Source of the DNA: an uncultured Lachnospiraceae bacterium
GTDB taxonomy: Bacteria > Bacillota > Clostridia > Oscillospirales > CAG-272
Assembly (NCBI GenBank): GCA_964430755.1
Contig: CAYSFT010000002.1
Location: 21,001 to 85,000, forward strand
Reading direction: 5' to 3'
Length of the DNA stretch: 64,000 bases
Below are positions 4,290 through 53,984 of the stretch, in pieces. The position numbers and the translations under genes are program-made. The notes under the pieces are model-generated. The model did not search any database. It was not told where the DNA came from and saw nothing but the letters and a program-made list of their open reading frames with translations. Positions within the stretch are counted from its first letter, which is position 1; every line of letters starts with the position of its first letter.

Positions 4290-5093
4290 ATGAATTTTTT
4301 CGGTAAAAGTGATGTCGGTTTGGTGCGTACGGAAAATCAGGATAGCTATGTTATCCGTCCTGTATGCAAAAATGCAACGCTCTGCGTCGTTTGTGACGGT
4401 ATGGGCGGTGCGAAAAGCGGTAACGTCGCAAGCCGGCAGGCAATAGACACATTTGTTGAGAATGTTGTCAAATATGCGTCGGCAAAGCTGAATCGTGACG
4501 GTTCACTGTCGCTTTCGAGTGACGATGCCTGTGTCATTCTCGATGATGCCGCACGTGACGCCAACAAAACTGTATATGATTTAGCGCAGACCTCGCCCGA
4601 TTATCAGGGAATGGGTACTACGCTTGTCGGTGCGCTTTTCTGCGACAATATGGTTTATGTTATCAATATCGGAGACAGCCGTCTCTATCTTATTTCCAAT
4701 AATACGATCACTCAGATTACTCATGACCATTCCTATATTCAGCATCTTATTGACAGCGGCACCGTCAGTGTTGAGGAAGCGAGAAACCATCCGTTCAGAA
4801 ACCGTATTACACGCGCTGTCGGAATTGCTTCCGAAATTGAATCGGATATTTTCTCCGTTGACCTTTCAGAGCTTGACGTTGCTTACTTACTTCTTTGCTC
4901 GGACGGACTTTCCGGTCTGCTTTTTCCCGAGGATATATATGAGATGATATCCTCCGATCTTGATATTGAACTCGTTACAGACATTGAATCGGAGCTTTGC
5001 GATAAAACCGATCGCCTTATAAAAGCTGCCAACGACGCCGGCGGAACAGACAATATAACCGCGGTACTTGTAAAATATATAAAGGAGCGGTGA
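4290..5093 (+). CDS. stp: PP2C-family Ser/Thr protein phosphatase
   Basis: VCDGMGG, GDSRLY and GGTDNITAVLV motifs. Sits directly upstream of the PASTA kinase. Confidence 0.9.
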   Translation: MNFFGKSDVGLVRTENQDSYVIRPVCKNATLCVVCDGMGGAKSGNVASRQAIDTFVENVVKYASAKLNRDGSLSLSSDDACVILDDAARDANKTVYDLAQTSPDYQGMGTTLVGALFCDNMVYVINIGDSRLYLISNNTITQITHDHSYIQHLIDSGTVSVEEARNHPFRNRITRAVGIASEIESDIFSVDLSELDVAYLLLCSDGLSGLLFPEDIYEMISSDLDIELVTDIESELCDKTDRLIKAANDAGGTDNITAVLVKYIKER

Positions 5094-5095
5094 TT

Positions 5096-6958
5096 ATGGA
5101 TCAGTTTGAAAGATATGTCGGACAGGTTTTCGACAAGCGTTACAGAATTGTTAAAGTTATCGGTATCGGTGGTATGGCTGTCGTTTTCGAGGCGACTGAC
5201 CTTCTCATGCGCCGTAATGTTGCCGTGAAGATGCTTAAGGATGAGATCAACAACGATGTTCAGTCTGTTAAGCGTTTTATCAACGAAAGTAAGGCTGTTG
5301 CTATGCTTTCTCATCCCAATATCGTTAATATTTACGATGTTTCCGTTAAGGATTCACTGAAATATATCGTAATGGAGCTTGTTGAGGGTATAACTCTCAA
5401 AAATTACATTTTAAAGAAGGGTACTTTAAGCTTTGGTGAAATAATGAGCATCACCGAGCAGATACTTCGTGCTCTTGACCATGCACATCAGAAAGGCGTT
5501 GTCCACCGTGACATCAAGCCGCAGAATATCATGATGCTCAAAAACGGTTCGATCAAGGTTGCGGACTTTGGTATCGCAAAGCTTCCGAATGCTGAGACTG
5601 TAACCATGACGGACAAGGCAATCGGCACAGTGTTCTATATCAGTCCCGAGCAGGCAAGCGGCAAGAAAATTGACCGCAGAAGCGACATTTATTCACTTGG
5701 CGTAACTATGTATGAAATGGCGACCGGTAAGCTTCCGTTCGTTGCGGACAGCCCTGTAACCGTTGCGATAATGCAGGTTAAAAACCGTCCGCGTCCGCCG
5801 CGCGAGATCAACGATTCACTGCCTCTCGGACTTGAACAGATCATAATGGGCGCGATGGAAAAGAATCCCGACAACCGTTTCCAAAGTGCGGCACAAATGC
5901 TTCGTCACTTGGCGCAGGTTAAGAATAATCCGAGAACGGTTTTCAAAATGCCAAAGACAGAATCGTCCTATGAACCTGCTCCGGACGGTGGACAGGCTAT
6001 GCCCGATAATGTTAAAAAGCTCACAAGACCGACACGCGCCAGTCGTTCCATGTTTCCGGTCGTTGCAGGCGTTGCAAGCTCTTTCCTGATTGTTTTTCTG
6101 ATAAGCATGGTGGTTGTTTTCATGAAATTTTCTGAGGTTTCCGAAAATGATACATCAGAGCAGATAACAATTCCGAAATTTATCGGTAATTTTTACAGTG
6201 AAGACTATGAAGCACAGCTTGAAGACGGTTATTATAATGTTGAGGTTCAGTATATATACGATGCAAAATATCCGCAGAACGAGATTATCGGACAGGATCC
6301 GCTTCCCGATGAAAAGCGAAAAATAAATCCCGCCAAAAATCAGAAATGTGAGCTTATACTTAAGGTCAGCAAGGGCGCAACAACCTGCGAGCTTCCCGAT
6401 TTTGAATATAAAGATTCACGCTCGGCGGAAATTGAGATAAGAGCACTCGGACTTAAGCCTGTCATTATAAAAGAACAGCACGAGATTATCAGCGAGGGAT
6501 ATGTTATCCGCACCGATCCGGAGCCGGGAACAATACTTGAGGGCGGTGCTACTGTTACAATCTATGTCAGCAGCGGTCAGGAGATAGAGTATACGGTCGT
6601 TCCTGACTTCACCAATTGTACGGAAAATGAAGTTATGACACTGCTTGCCGAGCGAGGACTGCAGCTTGGTTATGTTTCAAAGGAATATAACGATAGCATT
6701 GAGGAGGGCAGGGTTATCAGTCAGAGCCTTTCGAAGGAGCAGCAGGTTCCGAGCGGAACAAAGATTGATTTTGTTATGAGTAAGGGTCCGTTTGTCGTTG
6801 AATCGGAAGAGACTACCGACGAGACCGGCGAGCCGATTGACAATCCGCTTGACCATCCTGATGATACAGAGAAGCAGCCGGATGCCTCGGATGACGAGAT
6901 GGAAGATCTGCTTGAAGCGATTTTAGGAGGTTCAGGCGGTGGATCCGGGGATGAGTGA
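5096..6958 (+). CDS. prkC: Ser/Thr protein kinase with extracellular PASTA repeats
   Basis: Hanks kinase motifs (VAVK, HRDIKPQN, DFGIA, SPEQ), one TM segment, and PASTA-like repeats. I chose the ATG at 5096, 8 nt after aaaggag; the track start at 5090 is a GTG. Confidence 0.9.
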   Translation: MDQFERYVGQVFDKRYRIVKVIGIGGMAVVFEATDLLMRRNVAVKMLKDEINNDVQSVKRFINESKAVAMLSHPNIVNIYDVSVKDSLKYIVMELVEGITLKNYILKKGTLSFGEIMSITEQILRALDHAHQKGVVHRDIKPQNIMMLKNGSIKVADFGIAKLPNAETVTMTDKAIGTVFYISPEQASGKKIDRRSDIYSLGVTMYEMATGKLPFVADSPVTVAIMQVKNRPRPPREINDSLPLGLEQIIMGAMEKNPDNRFQSAAQMLRHLAQVKNNPRTVFKMPKTESSYEPAPDGGQAMPDNVKKLTRPTRASRSMFPVVAGVASSFLIVFLISMVVVFMKFSEVSENDTSEQITIPKFIGNFYSEDYEAQLEDGYYNVEVQYIYDAKYPQNEIIGQDPLPDEKRKINPAKNQKCELILKVSKGATTCELPDFEYKDSRSAEIEIRALGLKPVIIKEQHEIISEGYVIRTDPEPGTILEGGATVTIYVSSGQEIEYTVVPDFTNCTENEVMTLLAERGLQLGYVSKEYNDSIEEGRVISQSLSKEQQVPSGTKIDFVMSKGPFVVESEETTDETGEPIDNPLDHPDDTEKQPDASDDEMEDLLEAILGGSGGGSGDE

Positions 6959-9023: not shown

Positions 9024-9383
9024 ATGACAATAAAACTATTCGATTCCGAATTAAAGGTGATGAATGTGCTCTGGAAAAACGGCGATACCACCGCAAAACG
9101 AATTGCCGAAATCCTCGGCGAAGAAATCGGTTGGAACGTCAACACCACATATACAGTCATCAAAAAATGTATTGCAAAGGATGCGATCAAACGAAGTGAG
9201 CCGGGATTCCTCTGCCATGCCCTTGTTACAAAGCGAGAAGTGCAGGAGATCGAAACCTGCGAGCTTATCGACAAGCTTTACGAGGGCGCGGCGGACAAGC
9301 TCGTTGCCTGTCTTATTGAGGGAAAACGTCTTACACCCGATGAAATCGCACGCCTTAAAGCAATGGTGGAGGAGCTTAAATGA
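9024..9383 (+). CDS. BlaI/MecI/CopY-family transcriptional repressor
   Basis: 119-aa winged-helix protein (ELKVMNVLW..., TTYTVIKKC). ATGA-coupled to an M56 transducer gene. Confidence 0.9.
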   Translation: MTIKLFDSELKVMNVLWKNGDTTAKRIAEILGEEIGWNVNTTYTVIKKCIAKDAIKRSEPGFLCHALVTKREVQEIETCELIDKLYEGAADKLVACLIEGKRLTPDEIARLKAMVEELK

Positions 9384-10987
9384 TTACGGCGGCAATCAGT
9401 GCAAGCGTGATGATACTTGTCATCATAGTGCTTCGGTTGTTTCTTTTGAAGCGTATGCCAAAACGCTGTTTTCGTCTATTATGGATACTTGCGGCGCTCA
9501 GACTTCTTGTCCCGTTTTCGTTTACTTTTGAAGTGGAGATCGAAGCAGAGAAGCCTGCAGACATACCGCAAACGGTGTATATTGACACATCGGATGCTGT
9601 ATATTCAAGCGATGAAACTGAAATTGAAGCAGCAGATTTTGATTTTACCATGATCATAAAACCAGTCCTTTTAATTGGAACGATAATCAGCGCGGGATTT
9701 TTAATTTCGGCGTATGCACGAATGAGAAAAATCGCTCTCCATGCTGATACACTCGCCCGGAAATATGCAAAGTGTATGCATAGGGTGCAGATACGCACGG
9801 GAAATGGCGCGAGTACACCTTTTTCCTGCGGAGTCTTTCGCCCGATCATATTTATTCCGACACAGATGCTCACTCTTGATTCTGTCAGACTTGACATGAT
9901 AATTGCCCATGAGCAGCGTCACATAAAAAACGGTGATCAGCTTGTTAAATGGCTTATTGCCGCGGCGTTTTGCCTTAATTGGTATAATCCGCTTGTGTGG
10001 CTTATGTGGCAGCTTGCTAACCGTGACATTGAGCTTGCTTGTGATGAAGCGGTTGTGAGTGGCGGAACGAGTAACTATGATTATGCGCTTTGTCTTATTG
10101 CGGCAGAGGAGGTTCGCATGACTGGTGCGGTTTGCTCATTCGGTGCGCCGGTGCTGAATGAAAGGATTGAATTAATTATGAAATCGAAAAAGTTAACGAT
10201 ATGCAGCTTTATCGGTGCAGGGCTTATCCTTGCGATGATGACAGTTTTCTTTGTAAATGTAACTGCTGTGGAGATTGACAGCAAGCCTGAAAATGAAACA
10301 GAATCAGAGGTTGTGACAACGTTCGCTGAACCCGAGGGAACGGAGGCGCTGTCTGTTGAGATCGAGGTTGAAGATGTGAAACATACACCTGCCGACAGCG
10401 AAGCAGAAATCGAGGCGATGTTTGATTGGTCGGTTTATGCAGAAAATGAGATATGCGCGGATTATTTTGAGAACTTCTATCCTGAAACGCCTTTTGAGGA
10501 GCTTTATGAAGTGACGACCGTTGAGGACATCTATATGGATGATGTTGAATGTGAGATTGGAGAGGTTGTACTCCAGTCTTCGCATCCGATTTCACCGTTT
10601 GGATTTTCGTGTCCGCTTAACGAATACGTCGGTATAACCGGTCATTTCGGCAGCCACACAAATCCGCTTGGGGTGGTTATATTCAATAACGGAGTGAACG
10701 TTTCGGCGGCGCTCGGTGCGGATGTTTTAGTCGCGGCAGACGGTAAGGTCACAAACGTCGGATATAATACATCTGTGGGTAACTTTATCGAAATTGATCA
10801 CGGCGAGGGATGGGTGACGATTTATCATCATCTTGAGAAGTCATTTGTTTCTATCGGTGATGAGGTTGAGAGCGGCGAGAAGATCGGCACGGTCGGCAGC
10901 ACAGGCGAGGCGACAGGCCCGAATCTCGGATTTGCCATAATCAAAGACGGCGCATATCTTGATCCGGAAGCATTGTTTAGCAAATAA
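9380..10987 (+). CDS. BlaR1-type M56 peptidase signal transducer with a C-terminal degenerate LytM (M23-like) domain
   Basis: N-terminal TM segments and HEQRH (aa 177-181). The C-terminus aligns with the M23 fold (IDHGEGW, YHHL, GSTGEATGP), but the zinc-ligand positions read NNGVN and GPNLGF. Confidence 0.85.
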   Translation: MITAAISASVMILVIIVLRLFLLKRMPKRCFRLLWILAALRLLVPFSFTFEVEIEAEKPADIPQTVYIDTSDAVYSSDETEIEAADFDFTMIIKPVLLIGTIISAGFLISAYARMRKIALHADTLARKYAKCMHRVQIRTGNGASTPFSCGVFRPIIFIPTQMLTLDSVRLDMIIAHEQRHIKNGDQLVKWLIAAAFCLNWYNPLVWLMWQLANRDIELACDEAVVSGGTSNYDYALCLIAAEEVRMTGAVCSFGAPVLNERIELIMKSKKLTICSFIGAGLILAMMTVFFVNVTAVEIDSKPENETESEVVTTFAEPEGTEALSVEIEVEDVKHTPADSEAEIEAMFDWSVYAENEICADYFENFYPETPFEELYEVTTVEDIYMDDVECEIGEVVLQSSHPISPFGFSCPLNEYVGITGHFGSHTNPLGVVIFNNGVNVSAALGADVLVAADGKVTNVGYNTSVGNFIEIDHGEGWVTIYHHLEKSFVSIGDEVESGEKIGTVGSTGEATGPNLGFAIIKDGAYLDPEALFSK

Positions 10988-11536: not shown

Positions 11537-11549
11537 TATGATAATTGTT

Positions 11550-11667
11550 GCTTTTGCAAAGCAAAAGCTTCCTTTCTATCCTTGTTGTGGCGCGGTTTGC
11601 GGAGCAAAATCTCGGTCTATGACCGAGATAGAGCAACAAAAGGTGGTTTGAAAATTTATTTTCAAAC
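11550..11667 (-). promoter_or_regulatory. conserved ~115-nt structured leader element, copy 1
   Basis: Roughly 85-90% identical by eye to 53824-53939. Three hairpins, including the 21-nt palindrome atctcggtc-ata-gaccgagat. It ends 13 nt before the start codon. Confidence 0.5.
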
Positions 11668-11677
11668 TTATCACTTC

Positions 11678-11714
11678 CAAAAATAAAAATACCGCGGTTG
11701 GTTGACCGCAGTAT
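11678..11714 (-). terminator. rho-independent terminator of metA
   Basis: On the minus strand: tactgcgg-tcaaccaa-ccgcggtat followed by ttttatttttgg. Confidence 0.7.
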
Positions 11715-11741
11715 TAGTGTTTGCAAAGTGTGAAAAAATAT

Positions 11742-45278: not shown

Positions 45279-46563
45279 CACATTCACCGTCTTTTTTTAC
45301 TCTGTATCGGTCGTATTGTCCGCGTGTTTTTGCGTCAACCGTTGCACGAACAGTAACAACTTCACTTCCGTAGTCGATATCAATAATCTCCGCCGAGGCA
45401 TACAGTCGGTTTACGACGCCTGCGTCTGCGTTCGGGATGATGAAGGTCTCATCAGTTTTACCGTTCTGTACCATCGCTTCGAGCTTGTTTATCAGCTCGT
45501 CAAGTCCTTCGCCCGTCAGTGCTGACACTGCAACCGAGTTTTTGTCGGGATCGAGCGCCAAGTGACCGAAACCAAACTCTGCCTGATCGCATTTGTTGTA
45601 AACGTACAGTGTTGGTTTATCTTTGGTATATTCGGACTTTTCCATGAGCTCGGACAGAAGTTTTTCTGTTACCTCAAGCTGGTTCATTGCTTCGGGATCG
45701 GATGCGTCGATTATGATCATGATTATATCTGCCCAGACTGCTTCATCAAGCGTCGATTTGAATGCCTTTATGAGATGATGCGGCAGGTTGCGGATGAAGC
45801 CGACGGTATCCGTGAGCAGGATGTCGACGCCGCAGGGAAGTGTGAATTTTCTTGTTGTGGTGTCGAGCGTTGCGAAAAGCTTATCTTCTGCGAGGATGCC
45901 TGCGTCGGTGAGCTTGTTGAGAAGTGTTGATTTGCCTGCGTTTGTGTAGCCGACAATTGATACTTTAGTTATGCCGGAACGCTCTCGTGCTTTACGCTTT
46001 GTGAGTCTGCCGCGCTCAAGGTCGTCAAGCTCGGCGTTCAGCTGTTCCTCGCGACGCTTTAAGTGACGTCTGTCGATTTCGAGCTTGGATTCACCCGGAC
46101 CGCGTGTACCGATACCGCCGCCGAGTCGGGAAAGCTCTGTACCTTTACCTGTAAGTCGCGGTGCGGTATATTTAAGCTGTGCAAGCTCAACCTGGAGCTT
46201 ACCCTCGGCAGACGTTGCATGGAGAGCAAATATATCAAGTATAAGCATGGAACGGTCGAGAACACGCACGTCACAGTCGATGCCGTCCTCGATGTTGCGA
46301 ATCTGCATTGGCGAGAGCTCGAGGTCGAAGATGACGAGCTTGATATCGTTTGCCTTGCAAAGGTCGGACAGCTCCACAAGCTTACCGCTTCCGATGCAGG
46401 TGCGATTATTCGGCGAGTCGAGCGACTGTATCATTTTCGCGAATACACTGCCGCCTGCTGTGTCGAGTAATCTTTCAAGCTCAGCAAGCGAGGTTTCACA
46501 TTCGCCGTCCTTCATTTTATCTGTATTGACCGCGACAAGCACGGCTCTTTCGAAATCTTCCAT
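45253..46563 (-). CDS. hflX: GTPase HflX
   Basis: HflX N-domain followed by GYTNAGKSTL, DTVGF and NKCD G-motifs. Confidence 0.95.
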   Translation of the reverse strand: MEDFERAVLVAVNTDKMKDGECETSLAELERLLDTAGGSVFAKMIQSLDSPNNRTCIGSGKLVELSDLCKANDIKLVIFDLELSPMQIRNIEDGIDCDVRVLDRSMLILDIFALHATSAEGKLQVELAQLKYTAPRLTGKGTELSRLGGGIGTRGPGESKLEIDRRHLKRREEQLNAELDDLERGRLTKRKARERSGITKVSIVGYTNAGKSTLLNKLTDAGILAEDKLFATLDTTTRKFTLPCGVDILLTDTVGFIRNLPHHLIKAFKSTLDEAVWADIIMIIIDASDPEAMNQLEVTEKLLSELMEKSEYTKDKPTLYVYNKCDQAEFGFGHLALDPDKNSVAVSALTGEGLDELINKLEAMVQNGKTDETFIIPNADAGVVNRLYASAEIIDIDYGSEVVTVRATVDAKTRGQYDRYRVKKDGECDGEEDEEY

Positions 46564-46655
46564 GGTTTGTACCTCCGTATGGGTGTTTCAGAAAACGAAA
46601 AAGGGATATGAAGCCGCCAAAAAAAGACGCTTCATACCCCAAAAGAACGAAATAA

Positions 46656-53811: not shown

Positions 53812-53823
53812 GTTATAATCATG

Positions 53824-53939
53824 GCTTTCGTTTTACGAAAGCTTCCTTTCTATCCTTATTGGGGGCGGTTTGCGAAGCAAAATCTCGGTCTATGACCGAG
53901 ATAGAACCACAAAAGGTAGTTTGAAATTTATTTTCAAAC
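53824..53939 (-). promoter_or_regulatory. conserved ~115-nt structured leader element, copy 2
   Basis: Matches 11550-11667 including the palindrome atctcggtc-ata-gaccgagat. It ends 12 nt before the start codon of the rSAM gene. Confidence 0.5.
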
Positions 53940-53956
53940 TTTTCTCCTTATACTTA

Positions 53957-53984
53957 ACAAAAACGCCACCGAGAAGGCAGCGTT
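53957..53984 (-). terminator. probable terminator of the ferredoxin gene
   Basis: On the minus strand: acgctgcc-ttctc-ggtggcgt (internal mismatch) followed by ttttg. Confidence 0.5.

Follow-up and report, generated by a model that had tools for sequence, protein, structure and literature searches.

What is one structured sequence of about 130 nt doing in front of two unrelated genes? The question is raised by a 64,000-nt stretch of DNA, hereafter the window, from an uncultured Lachnospiraceae bacterium (contig CAYSFT010000002.1, positions 21,001 to 85,000; assembly GCA_964430755.1). Two similar sequences lie on its minus strand. Copy A (132 nt, 11537..11668) is located between the host Shine-Dalgarno sequence (SD) and the ATG of a gene for a 141-aa DUF2383-like protein. 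Copy B (128 nt, 53812..53939) is located between the host SD and the ATG of a TatD-associated radical SAM gene, which encodes a small protein of the TIGR04038/TIGR04100 type. The copies share 92% column identity over 134 columns of a pairwise alignment that runs from 3 nt 5' of the first hairpin to the last base ahead of the ATG, and 85% once the unrelated flanks are counted in. No third copy is found in the window by nhmmer or blastn. An earlier reading of the window's letters, the original prediction, had recognised this pair and described it as a structured leader, by implication a conserved cis-regulatory leader or riboswitch. The pair is confirmed. The implied function is not: the element is absent from orthologous leaders, occurs in multiple and tandem copies, precedes unrelated genes and in one case sits in a terminator loop. 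The two sequences are best read as belonging to a family of interspersed repeats that are short (~125-160 nt), do not code for protein, form several hairpins, and occur in Oscillospiraceae-like Clostridia of the gut and rumen.

Relatives' contigs were picked by homologues of the two downstream proteins; loci are given L numbers. Synteny is kept in relatives whose proteins are from 60% to more than 90% identical, and their intergenic spacers are 61-90 nt long and contain no element. The spacer between metA and the 141-aa gene is element-free and 69-90 nt long in L006, L010, L012, L016, and L058, the last being a locus of assembly GCA_017466685.1. The spacer between the ferredoxin gene and the radical SAM gene is element-free and 61-68 nt long in L019-L024. 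At site A, the empty allele of L058 reads GGAAGTGATATCATGGAT (in a longer view, ...tatttttatttttGGAAGTGATATCATGGATAAAAAC) and the filled allele of the window reads GGAAGTGATA/AGTTTG...TTATCATA/ATGGAT, with slashes marking the ends of the element (longer, ...tatttttatttttGGAAGTGATA/AGTTTG...132 nt...TTATCATA/ATGGATAAAAAC). At site B, the empty allele of L019 and L020 reads GGAGAAAATCATGAC (longer, ATAAGGAGAAAATCATGAC) and the filled allele of the window reads GGAGAAAA/GTTTG...128 nt...TTATAAC/ATGAC (longer 5' flank, ATAAGGAGAAAA). The filled alleles lack the bases just before the ATG of the empty alleles, TC at both window sites and CAAACC at a third site, hflX. This third site shows the reverse polymorphism. 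A full copy precedes hflX in L021, and the window keeps a plain ribosome-binding site (RBS), ACGGAGGTACAAACCATG, the unoccupied site being GGAGGTACAAACCATG (46561..46576, minus strand). This pattern of empty and filled alleles indicates that the window copies are recent insertions and not an ancestral leader. Presence and absence in close relatives, multiple copies and occasional tandem copies together mark the element as mobile.

The host signals have been parted by the insertions. The host SD of the 141-aa gene, GGAAGTGA (11671..11678, minus strand), directly precedes the ATG in L010, L016, and L058 but is now ~135 nt from it in the window. The host SD of the radical SAM gene is AAGGAGA (53943..53949, minus strand). 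At the filled sites the host SD-to-ATG distance in the source genome is ~130 nt, and neither window gene has an SD at a normal distance from its ATG. Each copy had been described as starting right after the upstream gene's terminator. Intrinsic-terminator-like hairpins are indeed present on the minus strand, for metA at 11688..11715 and for the gene of a 2x[4Fe-4S] ferredoxin at 53967..53982, but the host SD lies between terminator and element at both sites.

The family extends well beyond the window. An internal pattern was derived from the conserved single-stranded stretches of four copies (the two window copies and those of L021 and L012). A metagenome scan with this pattern, TTTTGCTNCGCAAAN{17,24}AAGGAAGC, returns 33 loci, and the whole element is present in 28. 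The matches at L032, L035, L036, L043, and L045 are unrelated chance matches and were rejected. A covariance model, R1, built from 28 copies gives 34 matches, including three more diverged copies in L040; copies A and B score 108.9 and 108.6 bits with it. Pattern and model together yield ~30 more copies in relatives and gut metagenomes. L040 contains four copies in one tsf-pyrH-frr-uppS-cdsA-dxr-like operon (503-628, 4362-4606, 5473-5609). One precedes tsf and is diverged, without the third hairpin (H3); two are arranged head to tail before cdsA; and one precedes dxr. In the sample ERZ1643251, nine different contigs of similar coverage each carry an element locus, and pairwise identity reaches 98%; this points to a recent burst in one genome. 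The internal pattern has no match in viral contigs. A scan of a genome collection with the 19-nt palindrome of the second hairpin (H2) returns four chance matches, in Vicinamibacterales only; H2 is the most variable stem and a poor probe. Neither orphan pieces of H1 or H3 nor a longer autonomous relative were found in ~600 kb of loci.

Placement was counted over 31 matches, with duplicates left out. In 28 of these, a start codon opening a reading frame of at least 74 aa follows the element directly, and all are ATG except the TTG of uvrC. Of the other three, one precedes a 42-aa open reading frame, one abuts the second copy of the tandem pair, and one, in L042, lies in a terminator loop. Every copy is sense to the downstream gene. 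The element starts 0-5 nt after an SD-like purine tract and fills the spacer between SD and AUG. Pairing between the anti-SD and the 14 nt 5' of the element has a mean energy of -8.4 kcal/mol, compared with -2.1 kcal/mol for random windows of the same loci (Mann-Whitney p = 4e-17); the 16S 3' tail used here is the one we take to be that of Firmicutes. Across these matches the position is shown to be almost invariant, in the sense orientation within the SD-start spacer. The downstream genes are unrelated and encode UvrC, EF-Ts, Dxr, CdsA, HflX, PFK, Mfd-like, ABC-F, Na+/H+ exchanger, PHP, radical SAM, DUF2383-like, and other proteins. The original prediction, which had the element as a 5' leader of unrelated genes at a set orientation and distance, is borne out on these points. 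It had named in advance, as outcomes that would speak against it, a randomly placed mobile repeat or an alignment lacking covariation. The repeat is indeed mobile, yet its placement is very far from random, and covariation is present.

The exceptional copy in L042 (2390-2560) interrupts the intrinsic terminator of an ABC-transporter gene, within its loop. Its junctions read CGGGGAGAAGCC/element...TATATG/TATGGCTTCTCCCCGAGTTTTATTT, and the terminator consists of the stem CGGGGAGAAGCC/GGCTTCTCCCCG followed by AGTTTTATTT. The insert should disable the host terminator. The left arm and loop mimic an RBS, with GGAG, 5 nt, and ATG. This pseudo-RBS suggests that sequence, and not gene function, decides the insertion site. 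The second copy of the L040 tandem follows the GGTGA tail of the first.

A different hairpin-rich insert of ~170 nt is present in L018 (8608-8780), in the SD-ATG spacer of the orthologous 141-aa gene. It begins TAGCGTGAAAG, ends AATGGAGATTAAAATG, and holds GTTTGC-AAA-GCAAAC and GCCGCCGC-TAT-GGCGGCGG. L016, a close relative of L018, is empty at this site, so the site of copy A appears to have been struck independently. The L018 insert is probably a distant member of the element's superfamily. As an nhmmer query it finds no further copies.

In the alignment, the order from 5' to 3' is host SD, H1, the 5' strand of a long-range helix (P1), sometimes an extra hairpin, H2, H2b, the 3' strand of P1, the single-stranded AGAAAGGAAG, H3, and a tail of YAUGGUMAU plus 3-6 nt that ends at the AUG. 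P1 closes a three-way junction that holds H2 and H2b. Family-wide, H1 has 9-12 bp and the loop ATAAAT, and its stem covaries among subfamilies (GTTTGAAAG, GCGTGAAAA, GATTGAAAG, CTTTGAAA). In copy A it is GTTTGAAAA-TAAA-TTTTCAAAC (11646..11667) and in copy B it occupies 53919..53939; these and the following coordinates are on the minus strand. The P1 strands are GCGUUUUGUGGCU (5') and AGCCCCAAUUCCGC (3') family-wide, with a conserved U.C mismatch, and in copy A CCTTTTGTTGC (11633..11643) pairs with GCCACAACAAGG (11580..11591).

H2 has 8-9 bp family-wide and in copy A is ATCTCGGTC-ATA-GACCGAGAT (11609..11629), with its counterpart in copy B at 53882..53902. As a 21-nt palindrome, ATCTCGGTCATAGACCGAGAT, it occurs in the window at 11609-11629 and 53882-53902 only, where none is expected (100 shuffles). 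It had been called invariant. This is the case for the two window copies but not for the family, in which both arms change; double changes are seen at each of the five main stem pairs, for example ACTTTAGTC/GACTAAAGT in L021. The H2b consensus is UUUUGC-UNC-GCAAAA, with TTTGC-TCC-GCAAA in copy A (11596..11608) and TTTGC-TTC-GCAAA in copy B (53869..53881). It covaries in the diverged L040 copies (TTTCAC-AG-GTGAAA and TTTTC-TGC-GAAAA).

The SD-like AGAAAGGAAG is located at 11568..11577 in copy A and 53842..53851 in copy B. H3 has 8 bp and a 3-nt loop family-wide, and is GCTTTTGC-TTT-GCAAAAGC in copy A (11550..11568) and GCTTTCG-TAAAA-CGAAAGC in copy B (53824..53842). An A/U-rich tail of 12-15 nt separates H3 from the AUG throughout the family. 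In copy A the tail is AACAATTATCATA (11537..11549; family consensus YATGGTMATNNN) and adjoins the ATG at 11536-11534. The original prediction ended the element 12-13 nt before the start codon. H3 does end there, 13 nt (copy A) and 12 nt (copy B) from the ATG, but the similarity continues to the base before it.

Three further features were considered and rejected. By reading the sequences, no reading frame through the element is conserved across subfamilies, and a small conserved open reading frame was rejected because the frames differ. The AUG of the tail as the start of a leader peptide was rejected because it is in frame in some copies and out of frame or mutated in others. A helix that joins the two ends of the element and returns the host SD to the AUG is present in copy A only.

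The fold is well supported. Single-sequence folds of copies A and B are far more stable than shuffles (z = -5.05 and -4.57). Paired cells make up 93.1% on the alignment, compared with 85.0% when shuffled (reached by 0 of 500 shuffles) and 33-46% with slid partners. Nineteen pairs change on both sides, and the covariation score is 0.237 compared with 0.107 when shuffled (0 of 500 reach it). Covariation is strongest in H1 and H2, and P1 is backed by L025, L040, L044, and L054. RNAalifold favoured a pairing of the 5' strand UUUUGUGG with CGCAAAA; the diverged L040 copies back P1 instead. The orthologous copies of L033 and L034 differ by four substitutions. Two of these together turn a G-C pair of P1 into U-A, and another creates a G-U pair. 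This single case is a hint that pairing is kept up after insertion.

Whether these stems act as RNA or DNA is less clear. The compensatory difference between the H3 hairpins of the window copies, put forward originally as an argument for RNA, is real. It does not carry that argument: the ~1250 paired cells of 32 distinct copies include 13 G-U pairs and 17 A-C mismatches. This lack of a G-U excess means that there is no signature of the transcribed strand, that the covariation signal is not RNA-specific, and that compensatory changes alone do not argue for RNA over hairpins at the DNA level. The stems are near-perfect palindromes with 3-nt loops, and DNA palindromes typically have loops of this length. 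The stem pattern fits DNA-level hairpins or very young copies equally well as RNA. Whenever the host gene is transcribed, the element certainly is too, as part of the leader. Several copies lie within operons. In the pfk leader (L030, 3290-3230, minus strand; L064, 225-285), a sigma-70-like promoter (TTGACA-17-TAAACT with an upstream TG) is found ~75 nt 5' of the element, which places this copy within the promoter-proximal 5' UTR. One of two similar inner hairpins of the L030 copy is lost in L064.

The reading favoured here, and considered rather probable, is that of a structured repeat that is mobile, targets SDs, and supplies an SD itself. Insertion would be directed by an SD-like sequence, perhaps together with a nearby start codon, rather than reflect post-hoc selection on random insertion. 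Targeting by the SD is suggested by the SD-like tract common to all left flanks, including the pseudo-RBS of the terminator and the GGTGA that precedes the tandem copy. Essential genes may tolerate the insert because it is co-transcribed as an autonomously folding unit with a replacement RBS. This replacement could be the strong internal SD, brought nearer to the AUG once H3 forms, and/or the SD-like GGU(G/C/A)AU of the tail. AGAAAGGAAG has eight contiguous bases complementary to the presumed Firmicutes 16S 3' tail. It is present in all pattern matches and kept in the diverged copies found by the covariance model alone. The L040 copy at 503-628 has no H3, and there the distance from AGAAAGGAAG to the tsf ATG is 9 nt. 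Some subfamilies have a true SD as their tail motif (GGTGA in L040, GGAGA in L018). The near-perfect stems may serve mobility, probably by way of single-stranded DNA hairpins, and/or shield the neighbouring sequences from the leader.

Several observations weigh against this reading. Even with H3 formed, the internal SD would be 12-15 nt from the AUG, above optimal spacing. Its predicted accessibility is unremarkable (mean unpaired probability 0.46, compared with 0.40 overall), and partition-function accessibility of the SDs and the AUG gives no informative signal. A simple cut-and-insert model does not explain the loss of TC at both window sites. No direct repeat is found at the junctions of three empty/filled pairs, in which 2-6 nt before the ATG are lost, and four empty/filled comparisons reveal no consistent junction rule beyond this loss, TA and other duplications included. 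The diverged copy of L040 at 503-628 has GAAAGGAAG on both flanks, and a duplication is therefore possible for that subfamily. Terminal inverted repeats are absent: the left end (AAGTTTGAAAG or TAGCGTGAAAA) is unlike the reverse complement of the right end (ATGACCATAGC...). The left flanks end in GGAGGA, GGTGA, GGAAT, AGGC, ACTG, AGCC, and others, and have in common only a general SD-like tract; no fixed target of 4-5 nt abuts the left end among them. No transposase turned up in ~600 kb of flanks, at most 20 kb per locus, which were not searched for one systematically. The proportion of copies outside RBS spacers is drawn from ~31 copies, and the support is computational throughout.

A more far-reaching version is possible but doubtful. 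The family would then represent a new class of mobile element, one whose homing to translation-initiation regions relies on both landmarks of the ribosome, the SD and the start codon, and which swaps the spacer between them for a self-folding RNA cassette with ribosome-binding signals of its own. If true, homing to two landmarks would be targeting without known precedent, for example by an anti-SD-like guide or a step at the RNA level. Such an element would also be a portable 5'-UTR module of natural origin that could rewire translation in dozens of housekeeping genes simultaneously.

An unlikely alternative is a non-autonomous transposon that acts only as DNA, either an IS200/IS605-like HUH/Y1 derivative or a REP-like element, with the hairpins as transposase-binding sites. 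The link to the SD would be a preference for purine-rich targets combined with purging of genic insertions, and the SD-like motifs would be incidental. The lack of terminal inverted repeats and of an obvious target duplication is in line with this, as are the strict orientation to an asymmetric target and hairpins near both ends (H1 1-3 nt from the left end, H3 ~10-13 nt from the right). So are the perfect Watson-Crick stems with their 3-nt loops and no G-U excess. The copy in the terminator loop follows a GGGGAGAAG tract, which is not a real RBS, and in the tandem pair the second copy comes after the GGTGA of the first. The ends of the element are less congruent with such a transposon. No fixed tetra- or pentanucleotide is present on the 5' side, and H1 (GTTTGAAAG/CTTTCAAAC) and H3 (GCTTTCGC/GCGAAAGC) are unrelated sequences, contrary to the ends of IS200/IS605. 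The most conserved parts are the interior and the internal SD rather than the termini, and even the most diverged copies retain this SD. The position flush with the start codon in every case would not be expected from SD targeting alone. The unsystematic look at the flanks that revealed no transposase counts here as well.

A cis-regulatory RNA (a riboswitch, a thermosensor, or a leader bound by a protein or small RNA) that hides or exposes the SD, and that mobility has spread as a dispersed regulon, is quite unlikely. It would account for a position that is always in the leader, sense, and at a fixed distance from the AUG, and for a three-way junction supported by covariation. The downstream genes have no function in common, however, the orthologous leaders of close relatives lack the element, and the L042 copy has no gene behind it. 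Some features resemble a switch. The 5' strand UUUUGUGG has alternative partners, AGCCCCAA in P1 or the CGCAAAA chosen by RNAalifold, but the latter pairing is not backed by the diverged L040 copies. Two subfamilies contain the sequence GCUUUCGC(C/U) in duplicate, and it could swap partners with the 3' strand of H3, but this feature is missing in the window copies. H2 followed by UUUU is terminator-like. The compensatory change and the G-U wobble that arose at one locus after insertion (L033/L034) favour RNA; the lack of G-U enrichment overall and the 3-nt loops resemble DNA palindromes. Rfam 15 contains no matching family, in agreement with the original prediction, which had found no known riboswitch. 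In the whole window, one tRNA is the only hit at the gathering threshold. At E<=10, the two copy regions have chance-level matches only (E 0.9-9.5, far under the gathering scores), and none is to a group I or II intron, an IStron, or a self-cleaving ribozyme. At 125-160 nt, the element is shorter than self-splicing introns.

A duplicated promoter/operator cassette, with the palindromes as transcription-factor sites that co-regulate the two window genes, is highly improbable and, as far as sequence evidence allows, already refuted: the window copies do share the 21-bp perfect palindrome and a second 8-6-8 palindrome, each directly after a terminator where a promoter is needed, but the palindrome sequences are not conserved in the family (the H2 arms differ completely among subfamilies yet stay complementary), no sigma-70-like promoter is found inside copy A or B, as had been noted originally, many copies lie within operons, the pfk copy is preceded by its own promoter, and expression of the genes does not require the element, as the empty alleles show.

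Small interspersed repeats are common in bacteria, and the SD-targeting repeat proposed here shares traits with several of them. Like REP/BIME, ERIC/IRU, Correia (CREE), and the pneumococcal BOX, RUP, and SPRITE repeats, it is short, non-coding, multi-copy, hairpin-forming, and polymorphic among strains. Such repeats are likewise co-transcribed with their neighbours and can alter the behaviour of the mRNA. A comparison paper on the pneumococcal repeats is PMC3049150. Repeats of the REP, ERIC, Correia, and BOX type differ in occupying varied intergenic sites, for the most part downstream of genes or between convergent ones, and both orientations are often found. Terminal inverted repeats and TA duplications, which are lacking in the element, are present in several of these families. 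We know of no small interspersed repeat that is confined to the SD-start spacer or carries its own SD. The traits of a classical miniature inverted-repeat transposable element are partly present: the element is small, non-coding, multi-copy, and polymorphic in presence and absence, but has neither terminal inverted repeats nor a target duplication. With the palindrome-associated elements derived from IS200/IS605 (PATEs) and with REP/RAYT, it shares the lack of these two features, subterminal hairpins, and a fixed orientation. It differs from them in having no fixed left target of 4-5 nt, dissimilar end hairpins, and a large conserved internal three-way junction.

Other systems are similar in strategy rather than in form. 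Rickettsia palindromic elements are selfish repeats inserted in frame within protein-coding genes. As in those elements, a selfish structured repeat occupies functional sequence while the host gene works; the Rickettsia elements are translated within proteins, whereas the present element lies in the untranslated RBS spacer and supplies RBS signals. Phage T4 genes 38 and 25 have split RBSs, and RiboJ plus hairpin and bicistronic designs are synthetic 5'-UTR insulators. The likeness would be that a stable hairpin parts SD and AUG and shortens the effective spacing, and that a self-folding module isolates the RBS. Those cases are single-locus or engineered, whereas here the putative arrangement is carried by a mobile repeat; no self-cleaving ribozyme is detected in the element. 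Class C (IIC) group II introns home to sites just past intrinsic terminators. They are also mobile and structured, with a motif-defined intergenic target and a strict orientation, and a terminator is found within 10-25 nt of several copies of the element. The length of the element falls far short of such an intron; it has no group II match in Rfam, is often internal to operons, and has the SD-AUG spacer as its target.

Full-text searches of the literature, including searches with sequence strings, found no description of the element or of its placement. The descriptive account of a family of mobile structured repeats in RBS spacers is well supported, and the translational role and the mobility mechanism are inferred. 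Essential genes (tsf, dxr, cdsA, uvrC, and pfk) tolerate a structured insert of 130 nt exactly between the SD and the start codon, where the spacing is 5-10 nt. This bears on how far SD-AUG geometry constrains initiation in Firmicutes, and the precise targeting points to an insertion mechanism not yet known. If the element is a context-independent RBS module, it would be a ready natural part for tuning expression in gut Clostridia.

The element also misleads gene callers and breaks assemblies. Five database proteins (P0005, P0008, P0011, P0015, and P0255) have N-terminal extensions of 12-40 residues made by gene callers. In P0008 (L018) and P0255 (L064), the extension reads through the inserted element and is an annotation artefact of the repeat. 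The sole other assembly with the exact 141-aa protein, L001 (Logan contig SRR14307658_98717), breaks inside the element, 90 nt 5' of the gene (1-89). This is consistent with a repeat that collapses the assembly graph.

On the plus strand, H3 together with the adjoining 3' TTCCTTTCT is scored as an intrinsic terminator (11550-11568 and 53823-53843) and also resembles the 16S 3' tail (CCUCCUUUCU). Both resemblances are probably incidental to the internal SD. At one of the rejected chance matches, L032, a ~45-nt unit (CACATCGTCAACGTACGCAGGTTTTGYTTCGCAAAACTGCGGCTGCCTCA) is directly repeated at ~130-340 and is unrelated to the element. Convergent to the 141-aa gene, the window contains a BlaI/MecI-type repressor gene (Penicillinase_R) followed by a gene for a 535-aa protein (9024-10987, plus strand). 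The L001 orthologue of the latter has Peptidase_M56 (BlaR1-like sensor) and Peptidase_M23 domains.

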